Notes under the pieces: model-generated
Told to the model about the DNA's origin: nothing
The model's database searches: none
The model's input: only the letters and a program-made list of their open reading frames with translations
Program-made: the position numbers and the translations under genes
IMG/VR virus record: IMGVR_UViG_2526164597_000009
Strand: one strand, 5' to 3'
From: a virus
Taxonomy: Duplodnaviria; Heunggongvirae; Uroviricota; Caudoviricetes
DNA length: 37,945 bases
In this document: positions 1,143 to 12,869 of the stretch, piece by piece
Numbering within the stretch: the stretch's first letter is position 1
How the letters are laid out: every line of letters begins with the position of its first letter

Positions 1143-1748
1143 TTATCTTTCTACTTCCCAGCGTAGAGATTGCATTAACATAGCATAAATATTGAACAGG
1201 AAAGTTTTTAAAGTTAATACAAGGAACACTGCACTGCTTCCTACGAGTATATATAGTATTTGAACTCCAACAACTTTAGTGCAATGAGAAAACATTAAGG
1301 CTCTGAGTAATTTTGTAGCCAATCCATTTTCTTGCCCGAAAAGAAGGACTAAAAGATAGATAACAGACCAAAATATGAAATATATAAATACTCTCATAAA
1401 TACGCCATAAACATATTTTAAGTAACTTATCCCGTATAATGGATGCTTATACTCCATTAATGAAAGGAAAAGTTCAGGTTTATTTATGGTTGCAAATATT
1501 GTAAATCCAGTAATTAAAAAACCTAATGTTGTTGTAGTGAATCCGAATACTAAAGGTGTCCATTGTCTAATAGATGAAATTAACTCTGGTGATGAAGATA
1601 GACAAAAAGCATTAATAGATAATAATATCACTAATAATAATGTGAAATAAAAGTCAAATGAATTGACCTTTATTTTTTTAGTTAATTTGTAAACATCATG
1701 CAAAGATCGCTCTTTGGTCAGATCTTCTGGGTTGAATGTATATTTCAT
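1143..1748 (-). CDS. Hypothetical inner-membrane protein (about 4 predicted TM helices), last gene of the repressor-proximal cargo cassette
   Basis: 201-aa ORF in low-GC DNA; hydrophobic stretches such as LLLVILLSINAFCL, LVFGFTTTTLGFLITGFTIFATI, VFIYFIFWSVIYLLVLLFG, FLVLTLKTFLFNIYAML; start is 1 nt from upstream ORF stop. Confidence 0.6.
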   Translation of the reverse strand: MKYTFNPEDLTKERSLHDVYKLTKKIKVNSFDFYFTLLLVILLSINAFCLSSSPELISSIRQWTPLVFGFTTTTLGFLITGFTIFATINKPELFLSLMEYKHPLYGISYLKYVYGVFMRVFIYFIFWSVIYLLVLLFGQENGLATKLLRALMFSHCTKVVGVQILYILVGSSAVFLVLTLKTFLFNIYAMLMQSLRWEVER

Positions 1749-1749
1749 A

Positions 1750-2214
1750 CTATAGCCACCTAGAAATTATTGATGTTAACTTGGAAAAAATTTTAGTATA
1801 ATCTTCACGTTCTGGAATAATAATATTTCCTGCATCCTTTAATTCTGTGAATGCAGAATACGCCTCTTGAGCAGCTCTTTCCAAATCAGAACTAAGTTGT
1901 GGCCTTGATGCTTTTAGAGTAAAACTATCATTATTCCCTGATAGCCTTGCTCCGTGTTCATCTTTACCACTTATAATTACTTTAGAGTTGGCCATTCGGG
2001 TTGCACTTGTTGTTTTTTGAATGACGGCCTCAGAATTTAAACCATCTTCATTTTTATTTGTGTATACTAATTGAGCTTTACTACTATTAAGTTCTTCTTT
2101 TTCTTGTTCAATTTTCCTCCAGAAGCCATCAAGAGATATATTTTCACTATTTGTTGGCAATAACTCAATTGATAATCTATTAACAACAGAAAAGAGTTCA
2201 ACAAAATTGCTCAA
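1750..2214 (-). CDS. Hypothetical protein; probably the C-terminal part of a frameshifted about 348-aa gene (with 2294..2797)
   Basis: ORF begins with TTG and no good RBS; its frame is open upstream into the 3' end of the preceding ORF. Confidence 0.4.
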   Translation of the reverse strand: MSNFVELFSVVNRLSIELLPTNSENISLDGFWRKIEQEKEELNSSKAQLVYTNKNEDGLNSEAVIQKTTSATRMANSKVIISGKDEHGARLSGNNDSFTLKASRPQLSSDLERAAQEAYSAFTELKDAGNIIIPEREDYTKIFSKLTSIISRWL

Positions 2215-2293
2215 TGATCTTGGGTCTGTTAAGGGGGTAACCCGTAATTTGGGGGCTCCTAGTTTACGATAAATATCTTTTTTATACAGTCGA

Positions 2294-2797
2294 TCAATGT
2301 ATGATTTTTCTTTCTAATTCTTTTATTTTTTTTACTTCGTAATCCACAAAAGAATTATATCGCTGTGCAAGGCAATACTTGCTAGTATTTTCAAATTCTT
2401 CTAGGGTAGGGGCTCCAGAAACCTCTTTGCAAAGCATTAATCTGTGCTCATTAAGCATAAGAATAAAAATAGAGCTGGGGTGACTTTCTAGCGTCCTGTG
2501 ATCTCGAATTAATTGACCATCTTGAAATATTTGATCTCGTTTAAATATGGTCTTTTTTATAATGCGGCCACACAATGCAATTGTTGGAACTATAGGACCA
2601 ATAAAATCTGAATCTGTAGTATCTAACGTAATAATTTTTGTGTCAGTAAAGAAATATTCTGTATCTTTAAATTTTCTAACGTATTTTTGTGCGAAAAATG
2701 AAGGAAAAACAATGCAATCAAAAGCATCTAAGAGAACTTTGTCCTCTCCAAAATTTAAGGTATAGTTTGCAAATTCAATAGTTTTCGTAAAGCTCAT
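2294..2797 (-). CDS. Hypothetical protein; probably the N-terminal part of a frameshifted cargo gene
   Basis: 167-aa ORF in low-GC DNA starting 2 nt after the repressor stop; ends at an A5/T5 homopolymer (plus 2305..2309) where a 1-nt shift joins it to the next frame. Confidence 0.5.
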   Translation of the reverse strand: MSFTKTIEFANYTLNFGEDKVLLDAFDCIVFPSFFAQKYVRKFKDTEYFFTDTKIITLDTTDSDFIGPIVPTIALCGRIIKKTIFKRDQIFQDGQLIRDHRTLESHPSSIFILMLNEHRLMLCKEVSGAPTLEEFENTSKYCLAQRYNSFVDYEVKKIKELERKIIH

Positions 2798-2799
2798 TG

Positions 2800-3741
2800 T
2801 TAAACCCTTTTTCTAATTATTCCTTTAACTTTATTATTAAATTCCAAATCTTCTTTATCGCATTCAAAGCTATATTTTGTGTTTTCAACGCGGATGCGAT
2901 TGTTTGGAAGTTTAAATATGTCTCTAAAAGTAAATTCTCCGTTAATAGATACTAACCATAGACCATCGCTAAGATACTCCTCTTTGCTAATGATATATGA
3001 ATCATTTGCGGAATTAACTATATAGGGATGTTTTAAATTTTGAGGTAAAATTTCGCTCGAAACGATTAATTCTCTTTGATCAGTAAGTTTGCCGTCACGT
3101 AGATCATAGCAGTCTAATGTAAGCAACCCACTTAGCTTTGTTTGATTGGAATGCCCCTTACCAAAAGATAACCACTCGAGAGACACTCCTGTTTCTAAAC
3201 AGCATTGGATGATCCAGTCTGCCGGAAAAATGTCTCGCATGTATCGTGTAGCTAATGTGCTTTTTGAGATACCAAGGTGATCGGCTAAGGCTTGGCGCGT
3301 TTTGTAACCGTAAGCCTTAACAATTCGCTCTATTGCTGCTTTACCCCCTCGAGTGAAATCCATGTGGTTTTCATTATCGAACTTTATCGTGGGGGTGTGA
3401 ACTTCATTGCAAAATTCATCTGCAGACTGTTTTTCAGCATGCCGTTCTGGCGAAGGAGCTGGCACTCCTTCTTCAGCATCTAAACCAAATGCTAACCATT
3501 CGATTGATGCGCCAGTTTCCATTGAACATATAACAACCCAATCAGCAGGGAAGGTATCGCGTGCATATCTGTTAGCCATTGTACTTTGTGAAATACCAAG
3601 GTGGTTACAGAATGCTTGGCGTGATTTGAAACCATAGGCCATGAGTATTCTCTCAATGACTTTTTGCCCTCCTCGATTCTGCATGACCATGGCTTTCAGA
3701 TGATCTTCAACATGGCGAAATGTGATTTTATTAGTTGACAT
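2800..3741 (-). CDS. cI: Phage 186 CI-type immunity repressor with tandemly duplicated N-terminal HTH domain
   Basis: 313 aa; two about 65 percent identical modules (GGQKVIERILMAYGFKSRQAF...EWLAFG and GGKAAIERIVKAYGYKTRQAL...EWLSFG) then a C-terminal domain (GLWLVSINGEFTFRDIFKLPNNRIRVENTKYSFECD) resembling the 186 CI C-terminus as I recall it. Confidence 0.75.
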   Translation of the reverse strand: MSTNKITFRHVEDHLKAMVMQNRGGQKVIERILMAYGFKSRQAFCNHLGISQSTMANRYARDTFPADWVVICSMETGASIEWLAFGLDAEEGVPAPSPERHAEKQSADEFCNEVHTPTIKFDNENHMDFTRGGKAAIERIVKAYGYKTRQALADHLGISKSTLATRYMRDIFPADWIIQCCLETGVSLEWLSFGKGHSNQTKLSGLLTLDCYDLRDGKLTDQRELIVSSEILPQNLKHPYIVNSANDSYIISKEEYLSDGLWLVSINGEFTFRDIFKLPNNRIRVENTKYSFECDKEDLEFNNKVKGIIRKRV

Positions 3742-3763
3742 ATTCTTTATGCGAACCTATTCT
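3735..3763 (+). promoter_or_regulatory. Candidate lytic promoter pR (-35 TTGACA 3735..3740, 17-bp spacer, -10 TATTCT 3758..3763) in the cI/apl divergent region
   Basis: Consensus -35 with correct spacing to a 4 of 6 -10, directed into apl/cII. Confidence 0.4.
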
Positions 3764-3829
3764 CCGTTTTGTGAAGTTTTCGTCACGATTAATACCGGCT
3801 CACCACAAGCCAATAGGAGATGTTGCATC

Positions 3830-4051
3830 ATGACCCCTAACATTTCAATAACTCTGAATACGCCGCACGTCACAATTGAGCGTTATAGCGAACTTACTGG
3901 TCTTTCTATCGACACAATCAACGATATGCTGGCTGATGGTCGCATCCCTCGTCATCGCCTTCGGAAAGACAAGAAAAGAGAAAAGGTAATGATCAACCTT
4001 GCTGCTCTTACCGTTGATGCACTTACTGATTGCAATGTTGTATTCAACTAG
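3830..4051 (+). CDS. apl: Apl/Cox-like excisionase and transcriptional regulator (small HTH protein)
   Basis: 73-aa ORF with AGGAGA RBS 9 nt upstream of ATG at 3830; position between repressor and cII as in phage 186. Confidence 0.6.
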
Positions 4052-4083
4052 TTCCATTTTGGGATACATCAGGGGTGTCGACT

Positions 4084-4593
4084 ATGTTTGATTACCAAGT
4101 TTCCAAACATCCACATTTTGATGAAGCCTGTCGTGCATTCGCGCTGCGCCACAACCTGGTGCAACTGGCAGAACGTGCTGGCATGAATGTGCAGATTCTG
4201 CGGAACAAGCTGAACCCGGCTCAACCTCATTTATTAACCGCACCAGAAATCTGGCTGCTTACCGATCTGACTGAAGATTCAACGCTGGTAGATGGTTTTC
4301 TGGCTCAGATTCACTGCCTGCCATGCGTACCGATTAATGAGGTGGCAAAAGAGAAACTGCCACATTACGTCATGAGTGCAACCGCAGAGATCGGGCGTGT
4401 TGCTGCAGGTGCGGTATCTGGCGATGTAAAAACCAGTGCAGGTCGTCGTGATGCTATCAGCAGCATTAACTCTGTAACACGACTGATGGCGCTGGCGGCT
4501 GTTTCATTGCAGGCCCGTTTACAGGCTAATCCTGCGATGGCGAGTGCAGTTGATACCGTGACTGGCCTCGGTGCTTCATTCGGTTTGCTGTGA
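4084..4593 (+). CDS. cII: CII-like lysogeny establishment activator (186 CII family)
   Basis: 169 aa from [24 protein letters not shown]...; closely matches 186 CII as recalled ([20 protein letters not shown]...). Confidence 0.8.
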
Positions 4594-4600
4594 GGTGCTT

Positions 4601-4777
4601 ATGCTTACTAAAGAACCATCATTTGCATCGCTGCTGGTAAAACAAAGTCCGGCAATGCACTACTACGGTCACGGCTGGATCATGGGGGAGGATGGTAAAC
4701 GCTGGCATCCGTGCCGTTCACAAGATGAATTGCTGGCAGAACTATCTACGAAAAAAGGGGGAACAAATGGCTATTGA
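4601..4777 (+). CDS. Small early phage protein, hypothetical
   Basis: 58-aa ORF with GAGG RBS; its stop overlaps the next gene start. Confidence 0.45.
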   Translation: MLTKEPSFASLLVKQSPAMHYYGHGWIMGEDGKRWHPCRSQDELLAELSTKKGGTNGY

Positions 4778-9780: not shown

Positions 9781-9796
9781 CTGTAAATATAAACAG
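9781..9796 (+). promoter_or_regulatory. LexA box (CTGT-N8-ACAG) in the promoter of the tum/dinI-like operon
   Basis: Perfect CTGTAAATATAAACAG about 45 nt upstream of the ATG at 9840, adjacent to AT-rich -10-like sequence. Confidence 0.6.
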
Positions 9797-9839
9797 TGGT
9801 TATGCATACAGTGTTGCTTGTGGTGTCATAGGAGGAAAA

Positions 9840-10028
9840 ATGCAGGACTATTTTTTGGAGTCTTTGAAGCTCCAGCGCATTGATTTTTTTCTTAAGCTTG
9901 TAGCGGCTAGTGAGTGTAGTGATGAAGAGAAGGGGCTGGCTCTGCAGTGGGTTTCTGAATTGACTGATGAACTCATGGCAAAGATCAGAATCCACGAATA
10001 CAACCGCTCAATGGATGTCATCAGTTGA
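9840..10028 (+). CDS. Small SOS-regulated protein, possible Tum-like antirepressor N-terminal module
   Basis: 62 aa; strong AGGAGG RBS; immediately downstream of the LexA box. Confidence 0.4.
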   Translation: MQDYFLESLKLQRIDFFLKLVAASECSDEEKGLALQWVSELTDELMAKIRIHEYNRSMDVIS

Positions 10029-10038
10029 GGTGGCTTTT

Positions 10039-10272
10039 ATGCGCATTGAAATAATGATCGATAAAGAGCAGAAAATTAGCCAGTCTACTCTGGACGCCCT
10101 TGAATCCGAGCTTTACCGCAATCTGCGCCCCCTGTATCCCAAAGCGGTAATTCGTATCCGTAAAGGTAGCTCTAATGGTGTGGAACTGACCGGACTGCAA
10201 CTGGACGAAGAAAGAAAACAAGTGATGAAAATTATGCAGAAGGTGTGGGAAGACGACAGCTGGCTGCATTAA
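10039..10272 (+). CDS. dinI: DinI-family protein
   Basis: 77 aa, MRIEIMIDKEQKISQSTLDALESELYRNL...WEDDSWLH resembles E. coli DinI (MRIEVTIAK...ETWESADDWF); GAGG RBS. Confidence 0.7.
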   Translation: MRIEIMIDKEQKISQSTLDALESELYRNLRPLYPKAVIRIRKGSSNGVELTGLQLDEERKQVMKIMQKVWEDDSWLH

Positions 10273-10538: not shown

Positions 10539-11069
10539 TTAACCTTGTATAGTTATTTGAATATTTTCTTCATTAACACCAAAGTATAGGGCTAGCCCTG
10601 CTTTTGCCTCCTGAAGTGTTAACGGCTTAACTACATTTTCTTCTTCTTCTTCGTACTCATCACCCGCTTGATCGACAATCGAATTAGTCGGGGTTAATTT
10701 TGGAAGAGCTTTAAATTCCAACTTGTCAGCCTCAATGCCAATGTCTTTGAGGTTGCGATAAGATACGGGATTCCGATTGCCATCCCATTGTCCTGGGATG
10801 TCAATTTCAGCATAAGAATTGATGTTTATGATCCAGCGTTTAGGGTTTTCTGGAGCCCTGCTTACTCCCGAGATTCGACCGATCATAAAAGCATGATGAT
10901 GTTTTGCTTCTTGTGATCCCCAGTCCTTTCTCGAATTTTGTACACAAACTAAATATTCGTGCTTAGCTGCATGGCTGGCGTCAAGTCTCCATGCTTGGCT
11001 TCCCCCTGTGTTCAAAATCTCTGTTAAACCACGAGCAGTAAGTACAGTAATACAGTTGGTAGTAGCCAT
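10539..11069 (-). CDS. Hypothetical cargo protein (orphan gene in the cos-proximal variable region)
   Basis: 176-aa ORF on the opposite strand to neighbours, in low-GC DNA; acidic DEYEEEEEN tract; no family recognised. Confidence 0.5.
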   Translation of the reverse strand: MATTNCITVLTARGLTEILNTGGSQAWRLDASHAAKHEYLVCVQNSRKDWGSQEAKHHHAFMIGRISGVSRAPENPKRWIININSYAEIDIPGQWDGNRNPVSYRNLKDIGIEADKLEFKALPKLTPTNSIVDQAGDEYEEEEENVVKPLTLQEAKAGLALYFGVNEENIQITIQG

Positions 11070-11385
11070 TGAATTGTGACCCCGTCTTTTTTAGAGAAAT
11101 ACTATTGATGAATGTAGTTTACGTATTTTTTTATGGAGTAGTCAAGTTAGTATTATGCTCATTATTGGCTGTTTGTTGAGTATTGTGAGTTAGTACTTTG
11201 TGTAGTACCTCTTGATTTATGAGAATTAAATCTAAGTTATGACAAAGGGAGGCAGGGGGAACGCGCAGCGCAAGGTGGACAGGAGGCCATAAGGACTCAC
11301 TTGAAGTAAGAAAAGATCGATAAAGCAACAATGCATGTCTATGCCGCATGAATTCGCATGATCGTTTGAGGATCGTTTTAGCTGA

Positions 11386-11414
11386 GGCCCGCCAGGAATG
11401 GCGGGCTTTTGTTT
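11386..11414 (+). terminator. Rho-independent terminator (stem GCCCGCC/GGCGGGC followed by TTTTGTTT)
   Basis: 7-bp GC stem, 6-nt loop, T-rich tail on the plus strand; about 40 bp upstream of cos. Confidence 0.6.
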
Positions 11415-11455
11415 ATGTCATGCAAGTGCATGAAAACCACTACATAAAGCGGGCT

Positions 11456-11474
11456 GGCGTGGCGGGGATACGAG
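11456..11474. other. Candidate cos site (cohesive-end sequence GGCGTGGCGGGGATACGAG)
   Basis: Resembles the P2/186 19-nt cohesive end (GGCGAGGCGGGGAAAGCAC as recalled); located upstream of Q 3' end in the A-to-Q interval. Confidence 0.45.
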
Positions 11475-11787
11475 CGCGCGCAACGTGCATGATATGGCAA
11501 TATGCATAACCTAGTTGATGAGATGTCTTGCCACTAATAATATTAAAACGATTGAAACATGTGTTCCGTCCGTACCATAATCTTTAAGTGGGTGCAGGGC
11601 TAAATTGTATGATGAAGTATCATATTGCTTCTGAATACTAATGGATAAGTACACGATTGATGTGATGTTATTGCTGACTATTTTTTGTTCTAGTCTTACC
11701 GAAGACCCAACACGGGAGAAGAAATAGAAATTAATTGCGTGCCCTTTAAGTGCACAATTTAGCAACAATTTAAAAATGAGGTGAACA

Positions 11788-12186
11788 GTGAAAGAGTTGG
11801 AACTATATAATCTGAATTTTTATTTTAGCTTGTGTACTTCAGATGAAGTGGAAAGAATAAAAAATGTATCAAACTCGGCGGATTACTTACTCAAAATTAG
11901 GGCTAATGCAACTATAGAACATATCAGAATCCATCGGGTATTACTAGCTGCAATGCGTAGAAGTGGAAATAATTGGTCATTAAGTAGTTATTTTGATGAT
12001 TCTCCTTTTGAGGATTATATTGATGATGTTTCTGAACAGTACAAAGAACATCTAGAAGGGATCTCTGGCGGATTTGTATTTTGCAATGATCCGAATGGTC
12101 GGATATTAAAAACTGATTATGGATGTGTGATTACTATTTCAGAATCACTTAAGTATTTTTTGTATTACATGAATTTAGCTTTTTAA
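11788..12186 (+). CDS. Hypothetical protein; likely N-terminal part of a frameshifted HEXXH-peptidase gene
   Basis: 132-aa ORF with GTG start and AGGTG RBS; ends just after a T6 run (12156..12161) where a -1 shift enters the downstream frame. Confidence 0.45.
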   Translation: MKELELYNLNFYFSLCTSDEVERIKNVSNSADYLLKIRANATIEHIRIHRVLLAAMRRSGNNWSLSSYFDDSPFEDYIDDVSEQYKEHLEGISGGFVFCNDPNGRILKTDYGCVITISESLKYFLYYMNLAF

Positions 12187-12251
12187 CTTTTGATGATTGT
12201 GATGTTCCTGATGATGTAAGAATTGCTGCATTAAGAATTGCAATAAGAACT

Positions 12252-12869
12252 ATGATGCAAAAGGAATCAATGGATTTTGAAATTGATCCACGTGGTATAA
12301 TTCCATCACAAATTGATATGGAAATTAGGTACCATGTAAATGATGTGATGAAGTTTATTGTTGGTCATGAATATTCACATTACGTACTTGGGCATTTGAA
12401 TGATGAATCAACTTTCGAGGCGAGTTTTTTAACCTCTATTGATACGGAAGAAGTTAAACACAAATTTTTCTCCTATGACCAAAAGGATGAACTAGCAGCA
12501 GATATTCATTCTTTACGAATGTTGTCGCTTTCTAAAGAAAAATTGGCTGGGTTAATTCAAAAGGTTTGTATCTACTTCGTGTTCATGGATATATATTCAA
12601 ATGTAAAAGATCAGGTGTCACCTTCACTTAATTTCACAAAGACTCACCCTGAACCAATGGATAGGCTTAGAAATATCATAGAAGAGTTTAAGGAGGAAGT
12701 GGAAATTGATTATAATGAAATGGATAAGTTCATCAGATCAGGTGAGGTCATAAAGGGTTTCTTGCAAGATGATGCTGGGTATAATTTTGATGAAATATAT
12801 GATTTTTATGGATCAATTTATTTAGGTCAGTGGAGGGGAAAGCCGTTAATAGATAGGGTAGACTATTGA
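12252..12869 (+). CDS. HEXXH zinc metallopeptidase-like protein (ImmA/IrrE-like motif); likely C-terminal part of a split about 360-aa gene
   Basis: GHEYSHYVLGH motif near residue 38; the frame is open 33 codons upstream of the ATG without a start codon or RBS. Confidence 0.55.
   Translation: MMQKESMDFEIDPRGIIPSQIDMEIRYHVNDVMKFIVGHEYSHYVLGHLNDESTFEASFLTSIDTEEVKHKFFSYDQKDELAADIHSLRMLSLSKEKLAGLIQKVCIYFVFMDIYSNVKDQVSPSLNFTKTHPEPMDRLRNIIEEFKEEVEIDYNEMDKFIRSGEVIKGFLQDDAGYNFDEIYDFYGSIYLGQWRGKPLIDRVDY

Follow-up and report, generated by a model that had tools for sequence, protein, structure and literature searches.

A 186-type immunity repressor that joins two helix-turn-helix heads of different repressor classes in a P2/186-like prophage

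Repressors of the 186 CI family carry one helix-turn-helix (HTH) per subunit of about 190-210 aa. What, then, is the task of the second HTH in a repressor of this family that carries two? The question is raised by the cI gene at positions 2800..3741 (minus strand) of the DNA analyzed here, a stretch of 37,945 nucleotides from a virus of the class Caudoviricetes (IMG/VR record IMGVR_UViG_2526164597_000009), which we refer to as the window. The ORF, the Pfam matches and the match to the 186 CI structure 2fjr identify the product of this gene as a double-HTH immunity repressor of the 186 CI family. The original prediction for this locus described a tandemly duplicated DNA-binding domain and proposed that two heads in a single chain would change operator spacing and stoichiometry and might define a distinct immunity specificity.

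Architecture of the repressor and its prophage

The gene encodes 313 aa followed by a stop codon, compared to 192 aa in 186 CI (record U32222). In an ungapped self-alignment of the protein, aa 23-86 pair with aa 131-194 at a BLOSUM62 score of 241, and the two copies, referred to as HTH1 and HTH2, are 64.1% identical in protein and 66% identical in DNA. A Pfam search, one of the checks proposed beforehand, returned PF07022 (Phage_CI_repr) in two stretches (E 2.5e-57), together with a PF16452 (Phage_CI_C) match spanning aa 213-305 (E 1.3e-19). The length of the protein and the presence of two CI-type HTH modules, roughly 65% identical, in front of a 186-like C-terminal domain are in this way as predicted. 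Along the minus strand the gene encodes an N-terminal leader (MSTNKITFRH..., codons 1-22, 3676..3741), HTH1 (aa 23-86, 3484..3675) with the recognition region ISQSTMANRYARDTF, a hypervariable linker that is predicted to be disordered (aa 87-130, 3352..3483), HTH2 (aa 131-194, 3160..3351) with the recognition region ISKSTLATRYMRDIF, and a 186-CI-type C-terminal (oligomerisation) domain (aa 205-313, 2803..3129).

An AlphaFold2 monomer model built from 44 homologues consists of two separate five-helix domains (aa 25-85 and 133-193), a linker with a pLDDT below 50 at aa 90-127, and a confident, beta-rich C-terminal domain (pLDDT about 90); the whole-chain pTM of 0.39 points to no fixed arrangement of the domains. 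The top Foldseek match of the model is 2fjr (E 5.8e-17), and the C-terminal domain superimposes on that of 186 CI (2fkd_A) with a TM score of 0.90 and an rmsd of 1.6 A. The protein has the same PF07022 HTH family and the same PF16452 C-terminal family and fold as 186 CI (2fjr, 2fkd, U32222), but differs from it in having two HTH in 313 aa rather than one in 192 aa. Given that 2fjr can only be aligned with aa 136-309, HTH2 and the C-terminal domain together correspond to one complete 186-type CI, and the leader, HTH1 and the linker constitute the extra part. An internal start at Met127, which would give a single-HTH form of 187 aa, was rejected because it lacks a Shine-Dalgarno sequence and this Met is not kept in other double-HTH proteins.

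The window is a complete P2/186-like (Peduoviridae) prophage with int, three cargo ORFs, cI, apl, cII, fil-region genes, a methylase gene, a replication gene and late genes. [quoted passage not shown] The rightward lytic operon begins with a gene for an apl/cox-like excisionase-regulator (3830..4051, plus strand; phrog_575, E 9.6e-32), followed by a 186-type cII gene (4084..4593, plus strand; PF06892, E 3.2e-42). A further likeness to 186 is a putative LexA-controlled module of the Tum/DinI type: the only perfect LexA box in the window (CTGTAAATATAAACAG, 9781-9796, plus strand) is located upstream of a 62-aa ORF (9840-10028, plus strand; phrog_698) and of an overlapping DinI-domain ORF (9967-10272, plus strand). 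The latter resembles Tum-type proteins in their C-terminal half, and its match to phrog_189 (151 positions) is likewise confined to the C-terminal half. This arrangement fits 186-style SOS induction through a putative antirepressor. We suggest that 9781..10272 is probably an SOS induction module, in which the LexA box and the two ORFs may represent a two-gene version of the Tum module of 186. An interpretation of the two ORFs as a frameshifted tum gene was rejected because the first of them, of 62 aa, matches a family of its own, phrog_698, over the full length.

The slot between cI and int (1143-2797, minus strand) is occupied by three ORFs of 167 aa, 154 aa and 201 aa, for which PADLOC returned no match; the 154-aa ORF has a weak match to DUF4747 and phrog_10040, and the 201-aa protein looks membrane-bound from its sequence. 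The corresponding slot lies at 1365-3135 in L001 and at about 2395-3425 in L235-L237. In Escherichia coli 504239 the slot contains GmrSD and HEPN genes and in other relatives single ORFs of 295-342 aa, so that it looks like a hotspot for defence or cargo genes. Similarly, a poorly annotated block between the SOS module and the late genes (10539-12869), with ORFs of 176 aa (phrog_37247, minus strand), 132 aa (no match) and 205 aa (weak match to M48 peptidases), may be further accessory cargo.

Natural prophage repressors with two HTH in one chain are known from unrelated families, as in the case of RacR of the Rac prophage (PMC9638921) and phiCDKH01_17 of a Clostridioides difficile phage (PMC11172241). 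These proteins share with the window CI the presence of two HTH in a single temperate-phage repressor chain. Unlike the window CI, they are members of XRE-type families without a C-terminal oligomerisation domain of the 186 type, and are not known to combine two immunity classes in a mosaic. We found no published description of a double-HTH CI of the 186 family; the variants noted in a 2011 survey of P2-like regulatory genes are limited to longer couplers and C-terminal domains and include no such protein.

Two repressor classes joined in an old and widespread gene

The CI proteins of this family can be sorted into classes that we name A, B (with B1 and B2), C and D; these names were coined in this analysis and are not published. 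Class A comprises single-HTH CIs of 207 aa that have the same 22-aa leader as the window CI, a recognition region ISQSTMANRYAR and up to 91% identity to HTH1. Class B comprises single-HTH CIs of 186-198 aa that have the recognition region SKSTLA(N/T)RYMRD and up to 92% identity to HTH2. Both classes are found in enterobacterial 186/Fels-2-like prophages, and the window CI joins the two in one chain: its leader, HTH1 and pR operators are like those of class A, and its HTH2, junction and C-terminal domain are like those of class B. The last approximately 15 aa of the linker are homologous to the leader of class B2 CIs. The B2 N-terminus KYPNEIKINPNQGGK persists as the end of the linker in the window CI and, in an alignment including the N-terminus of P0118, B2 N-termini (MSTSKYPNEIKINPNQGGK...) persist in the same place in the double-HTH proteins (consensus KxPIExxINxNQGGK). 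Moreover, the canonical G-x-G junction to the C-terminal domain comes after HTH2 and not after HTH1.

The DNA has the same mosaic structure. Positions 3492-3775 match class A phages at about 73% identity in a match that ends immediately after the last of the candidate operators at pR, and positions 3734-4680 are 94% identical to L232, a B2 single-HTH phage, which places the breakpoint at about 3775-3782; within the gene, the HTH2 DNA (3169-3349) matches B1 and B2 single-HTH cI genes at 70-75%. The window cI is thus a mosaic in which a class-A-like unit of pR operators, leader and HTH1 (about 3484-3775) precedes an otherwise complete class B CI with a short leader. The wording "tandemly duplicated" is consequently not supported, since HTH1 and HTH2 come from two distinct CI lineages, each of which is also represented by single-HTH proteins, and the two copies in the window CI are not each other's closest relatives, as would be the case after tandem duplication in situ. 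Class A is not necessarily the donor: the class A single-HTH proteins close their HTH with the HTH2-like sequence SLxWLxxGxG and could be deletion derivatives of double-HTH proteins.

Phage L232 (Escherichia sp. E1V33) is 94% identical to the window in the early region (apl, cII and beyond), but has an ordinary single-HTH B2 cI of 198 aa; near-identical phages have recently exchanged their immunity modules.

The combination of class A and class B heads is one of several. Other double-HTH proteins combine C with B2 (P0033-39), B1 with C (P0046), C with B1 (P0040) and D with a B2-like head (P0043, P0047 and P0051), and a library clustered at 50% identity contains further two-copy families of 285-330 aa in which the copies of one protein are 28% to 70% identical to each other. 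Together, the different combinations and the further families argue that the double-HTH architecture arose repeatedly. Some of the distant families are true in-situ duplications, such as P0190 of Shewanella algae, in which the two copies are 70% identical and each other's closest relatives. A scan of genome contigs recovered mostly class B single-HTH proteins because the search patterns were derived from HTH2. Two longer proteins, P0241 (484 aa) and P0251 (521 aa), contain four or five tandem HTH repeats that weakly match the CI HTH, have no CI C-terminal domain and appear to belong to a different multi-HTH family.

The repeat itself is the only observation that would favor an assembly artefact or a very recent tandem duplication, and we regard either explanation as having a negligible chance of being correct. 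The copies are only 66% identical in DNA, the synonymous sites between HTH1 and HTH2 of the window gene are saturated (pS 0.83, pN 0.19), and the gene is present in numerous independent complete genomes and phage records. Region 2200-4700 is found at an identity of at least 98.4% in 11 complete E. coli genomes, and a close N-terminal double-HTH part in 41 of 5426 complete E. coli genomes, including E2348/69. Thirteen Klebsiella phage records contain the protein at 98% identity, and at a clustering threshold of 90% it groups with sequences from E. coli, Klebsiella and Salmonella in a cluster of 215 members. Among the best 120 homologue clusters, the two-HTH architecture is present in 48 (290-330 aa long). 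Across the family, the mean identity is 74% between HTH1 sequences, 78% between HTH2 sequences and 60% between HTH1 and HTH2. The double-HTH CI is thus an old, widespread and genuine gene, and the concern of an artefact raised together with the original prediction can be set aside.

Candidate operators at pR and the first head

The candidate pR (3735..3763) consists of a -35 element TTGACA (3735-3740, plus strand), which overlaps the cI start codon (3739-3741), and a -10 element TATTCT (3758-3763, plus strand) at a spacing of 17 nt. It scores 10/12 in a consensus scan, is conserved in all relatives and, with respect to the cI start, is positioned like the pR annotated in 186. The operator search that had been proposed for pR and its flanks identified three conserved candidate sites at pR and no flanking site that tracks the CI class. 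Candidate operator a (CGAAATGTGA, 3716..3725, plus strand) is located within cI codons 6-9 just upstream of the -35 element, so that the DNA encoding the leader both contains this site and overlaps the promoter. Candidate operator b (3745..3754, plus strand) is in the promoter spacer, where it is degenerate in the window (TTTATGCGA) and canonical in relatives (CCGATTTGTGA or GCGTTTTGTGA). Candidate operator c (CGTTTTGTGA, 3765..3774, plus strand) lies at about +1 of pR and is the last element of the class-A-like module. All three are direct CG-N4-G(T/C)GA elements, and they occupy positions -26, +3 and +23 from the cI start in double-HTH and class A single-HTH phages alike. Within the 38 kb the exact motif clusters only at pR; a looser pattern has a background of 0.55 per kb. 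In cI codons 1-12, the identity of synonymous codons is 0.88-0.92 compared to a baseline of about 0.55, and pS is 0.34 in the leader compared to about 0.65 elsewhere in cI. This conservation is expected from an operator and a -35 element embedded in the coding sequence.

As in the window, the repressor sites of 186 overlap pR and the cI start, and in the curated 186 record three CI sites, beginning at the cI start, cover pR. The 186 sites are inverted repeats, however, in contrast to the candidate direct CG-N4-GTGA repeats in the window. The 186 record also contains two flanking sites (ATTCAC-N5-GTGAAT) at distances of about 285 bp (FL, on the left) and 393 bp (FR, on the right); around the window pR, we identified no counterparts of FL and FR that track the CI class. 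Directly repeated operator elements are used by the P2 C repressor (PMC2995052), an immunity repressor that differs from the window CI in belonging to another protein family and in having a single HTH in 99 aa.

Which of the two heads recognizes the sites at pR? In the double-HTH phages with the combinations C+B2, B1+C and D+B2-like, the pR region is similar to that of single-HTH phages of the class to which HTH1 belongs. The pR sites of C-type phages follow TCYC-N5-GTGA and those of B1-type phages TCAC-N5-GTGA; the pR of the B1 phage L102 contains GGTCACTCCAAGTGAAC and that of the B2 phage L190 GTTCCCATTTGGGGAC. Since the pR operators match the class of HTH1 across the different combinations, we infer that repression of the phage's own pR is the role of HTH1, and that in the window this head likely acts through the three candidate sites, which are assigned to HTH1 by homology with class A phages. 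Two parts of the original prediction do not fit these data. The proposed change in operator spacing is not supported by the positions -26, +3 and +23, which are the same in the single-HTH class A phages, and the proposed distinct immunity specificity is not apparent at pR, where the specificity looks shared with class A.

A comparison of phage 186 (L182) with the pR regions of L102, L188 and L207 indicates that every operator type in the family is built on a GNGA/TCNC half-site, which is GAGA and GTGA in 186 (927-943 and 1605-1621 in L182), GTGA in classes A, B1 and C, and GGGA in B2. The recognition helices of the classes differ mainly at the N/T position and at the residue before the final R. 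This correspondence between half-sites and helices looks like a tractable recognition code.

The second head and the role of the double repressor

By combining the architecture, the mosaic structure and the pR operators with the pattern of selection, we suggest, with a probability of about 0.7, that the window CI is a functional mosaic immunity repressor of the 186 family in which HTH1 serves pR and HTH2 serves a second DNA-binding task. In pooled pairwise counts over 41 unique genes, with saturated sequences, pN/pS is 0.11 in HTH1, 0.21 in HTH2, 0.77 in the linker and 0.66 in the C-terminal domain, so that both heads are under purifying selection and HTH2 is maintained. (A sliding analysis of synonymous conservation was uninterpretable in the linker, where only near-identical sequences share identical residues and the values are inflated as a result.) As to the nature of the second task, the recognition region of HTH2 differs at one position from ISKSTLATRYMRDSF of an abundant E. 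coli B1 CI; cluster P0119 comprises 589 sequences, and a B1 scan matched 489 stretches in the viral collection. We therefore consider class B operators of the TCAC-N5-GTGA type, i.e. a broadened immunity, the most likely target of HTH2 and our leading guess. Alternatively, HTH2 could make extra stabilising contacts. In addition, the common GNGA half-site and the very similar recognition helices imply that the specificities of the two heads may overlap, in which case HTH2 could also bind the sites at pR.

Pattern scans of the window for TCAC-N5-GTGA, TCCC-N5-GGGA, TGTGA-N8-TCACG and TTCCATTTTGGGA gave occurrences at chance level only, and the prophage yielded no cognate site for HTH2. Three individual candidates were rejected. 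A palindrome at the apl-cII junction (AGTTCCATTTTGGGATAC, 4049-4066) resembles B2-type palindromes and could have been an FR-like site for HTH2; it is alike in A, B1, B2, C and double-HTH phages and hence does not track HTH2. TCAC motifs at 3783-3786 and 3800-3803 are not specific for double-HTH phages but common to B2 and C single-HTH phages with the same apl type. Relics of B2 operators in the coding sequence of the HTH2 leader, which could have formed an analogue of FL, are present in the double-HTH phages L044, L051 and L183 but absent from the window and from several other such phages, and coding constraint is a confounding factor.

Some of these elements merit a comment in their own right. 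The element at 4049-4066 (TAGTTCCATTTTGGGAT) overlaps the apl stop codon exactly at the position of the FR operator of 186, is nearly invariant across the classes and is probably associated with the cII/pE region and not with a particular CI specificity. The TCAC-containing elements GTCACGATTAA and GGCTCACCACAAGCC (3783..3812, plus strand) are probably not specific for a CI class, given their presence in B2 and C phages, and are possibly Apl sites or part of pL. Finally, an inverted repeat GAAGGAG-N6-CTCCTTC in the linker coding sequence (3447-3476), about 290 bp to the left of the cI start and thus near the position of FL in 186, is partly kept in relatives and could be due to chance.

How do other explanations of the two heads compare with a functional mosaic? 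Engineered single-chain 434 repressors act as pseudo-dimers in cis, and these proteins and the POU-domain factors illustrate that tethered, related HTH modules can read bipartite or asymmetric sites. By analogy, HTH1 and HTH2 of one chain could bind the two halves of a composite operator, which would alter spacing and stoichiometry and create a new specificity. The candidate pR sites are indeed asymmetric, with a degenerate left part (...C-G) and a strong right half (GTGA) that two different heads might read, and the flexible linker in the AlphaFold2 model would permit such binding. However, the same asymmetric sites are present at the same three positions in single-HTH class A phages, and C-type single-HTH phages also use asymmetric TCYC-N5-GTGA sites, demonstrating that asymmetry needs no second kind of head. 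The single-chain 434 repressors are, moreover, artificial and the POU-domain factors eukaryotic, and the operator layout in the window is unchanged compared to single-HTH relatives. We consider binding as a pseudo-dimer in cis unlikely.

It is less probable still that HTH2 is a functionless relic of the fusion or a mere spacer and that HTH1 alone matters. While this would explain why the pattern scans found no cognate operator in the prophage and why the pR palindromes of B2 phages are absent from the window pR, a relic would not be expected to evolve under the constraint seen in HTH2 next to a nearly neutral linker, to be on average more conserved across 47 clusters than HTH1 (78% compared to 74%), to keep a nearly invariant recognition helix, and to occur in no truncated or decayed form among the full-length proteins. 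The reverse assignment, in which HTH2 is the operator-binding head and the tethered HTH1 is an antirepressor decoy, a docking site or a long-range bridge, could draw on the fact that HTH2 and the C-terminal domain are the unit that aligns with full-length 186 CI, and on the presence of the LexA-controlled DinI/Tum-like module; given that the pR operator set matches HTH1 in four different HTH1/HTH2 combinations and that HTH1 is the most constrained segment of the protein, we regard it as the most improbable of these three alternatives.

In the model that we favor, the functional mosaic, the C-terminal domain would assemble the protein into dimers or higher oligomers, as in 186, and binding of HTH1 to the three direct CG-N4-G(T/C)GA sites would shut off pR. 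HTH2 would be retained by selection for its second DNA-binding task and, if this task is the recognition of class B operators, would extend the immunity to a second group of related phages. Induction would probably occur via the LexA-controlled antirepressor module, as in 186.

A more tentative proposal, which we regard as possible rather than probable, concerns the origin of such proteins. Capture of an immunity cassette could be a recurrent event in which a foreign module consisting of pR operators and an HTH is inserted in frame before a resident cI, with the old head being kept for immunity of the former class. If so, a single step would give the phage's own lytic promoter a new specificity and bypass any stage of non-functional mismatch between repressor and operators, and one prophage would be immune to two heteroimmune groups of competitors. 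Double-HTH CIs would then be natural intermediates, as well as stable end-points, on the way to new immunity specificities.

How repressor and operator specificities can change jointly has long been a problem in phage biology, since any single change should break the switch. A chain in which an "old" head is combined with a "new" one, and whose pR already has the new operators, provides a simple route across this specificity gap. The mosaic pattern points to a testable path of immunity evolution, whose key functional steps we infer from sequence. The several natural combinations of HTH1 and HTH2 are available to test it. Because the sources name double-HTH CIs simply "phage repressor protein CI", the annotation of these genes currently carries no mention of their architecture. 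[quoted passage not shown] About a quarter of the complete E. coli genomes matched part of region 2200-4700. HTH2 may add a second specificity to the repressor and, if the second head gives cross-immunity, competition among P2/186-like prophages would be affected.
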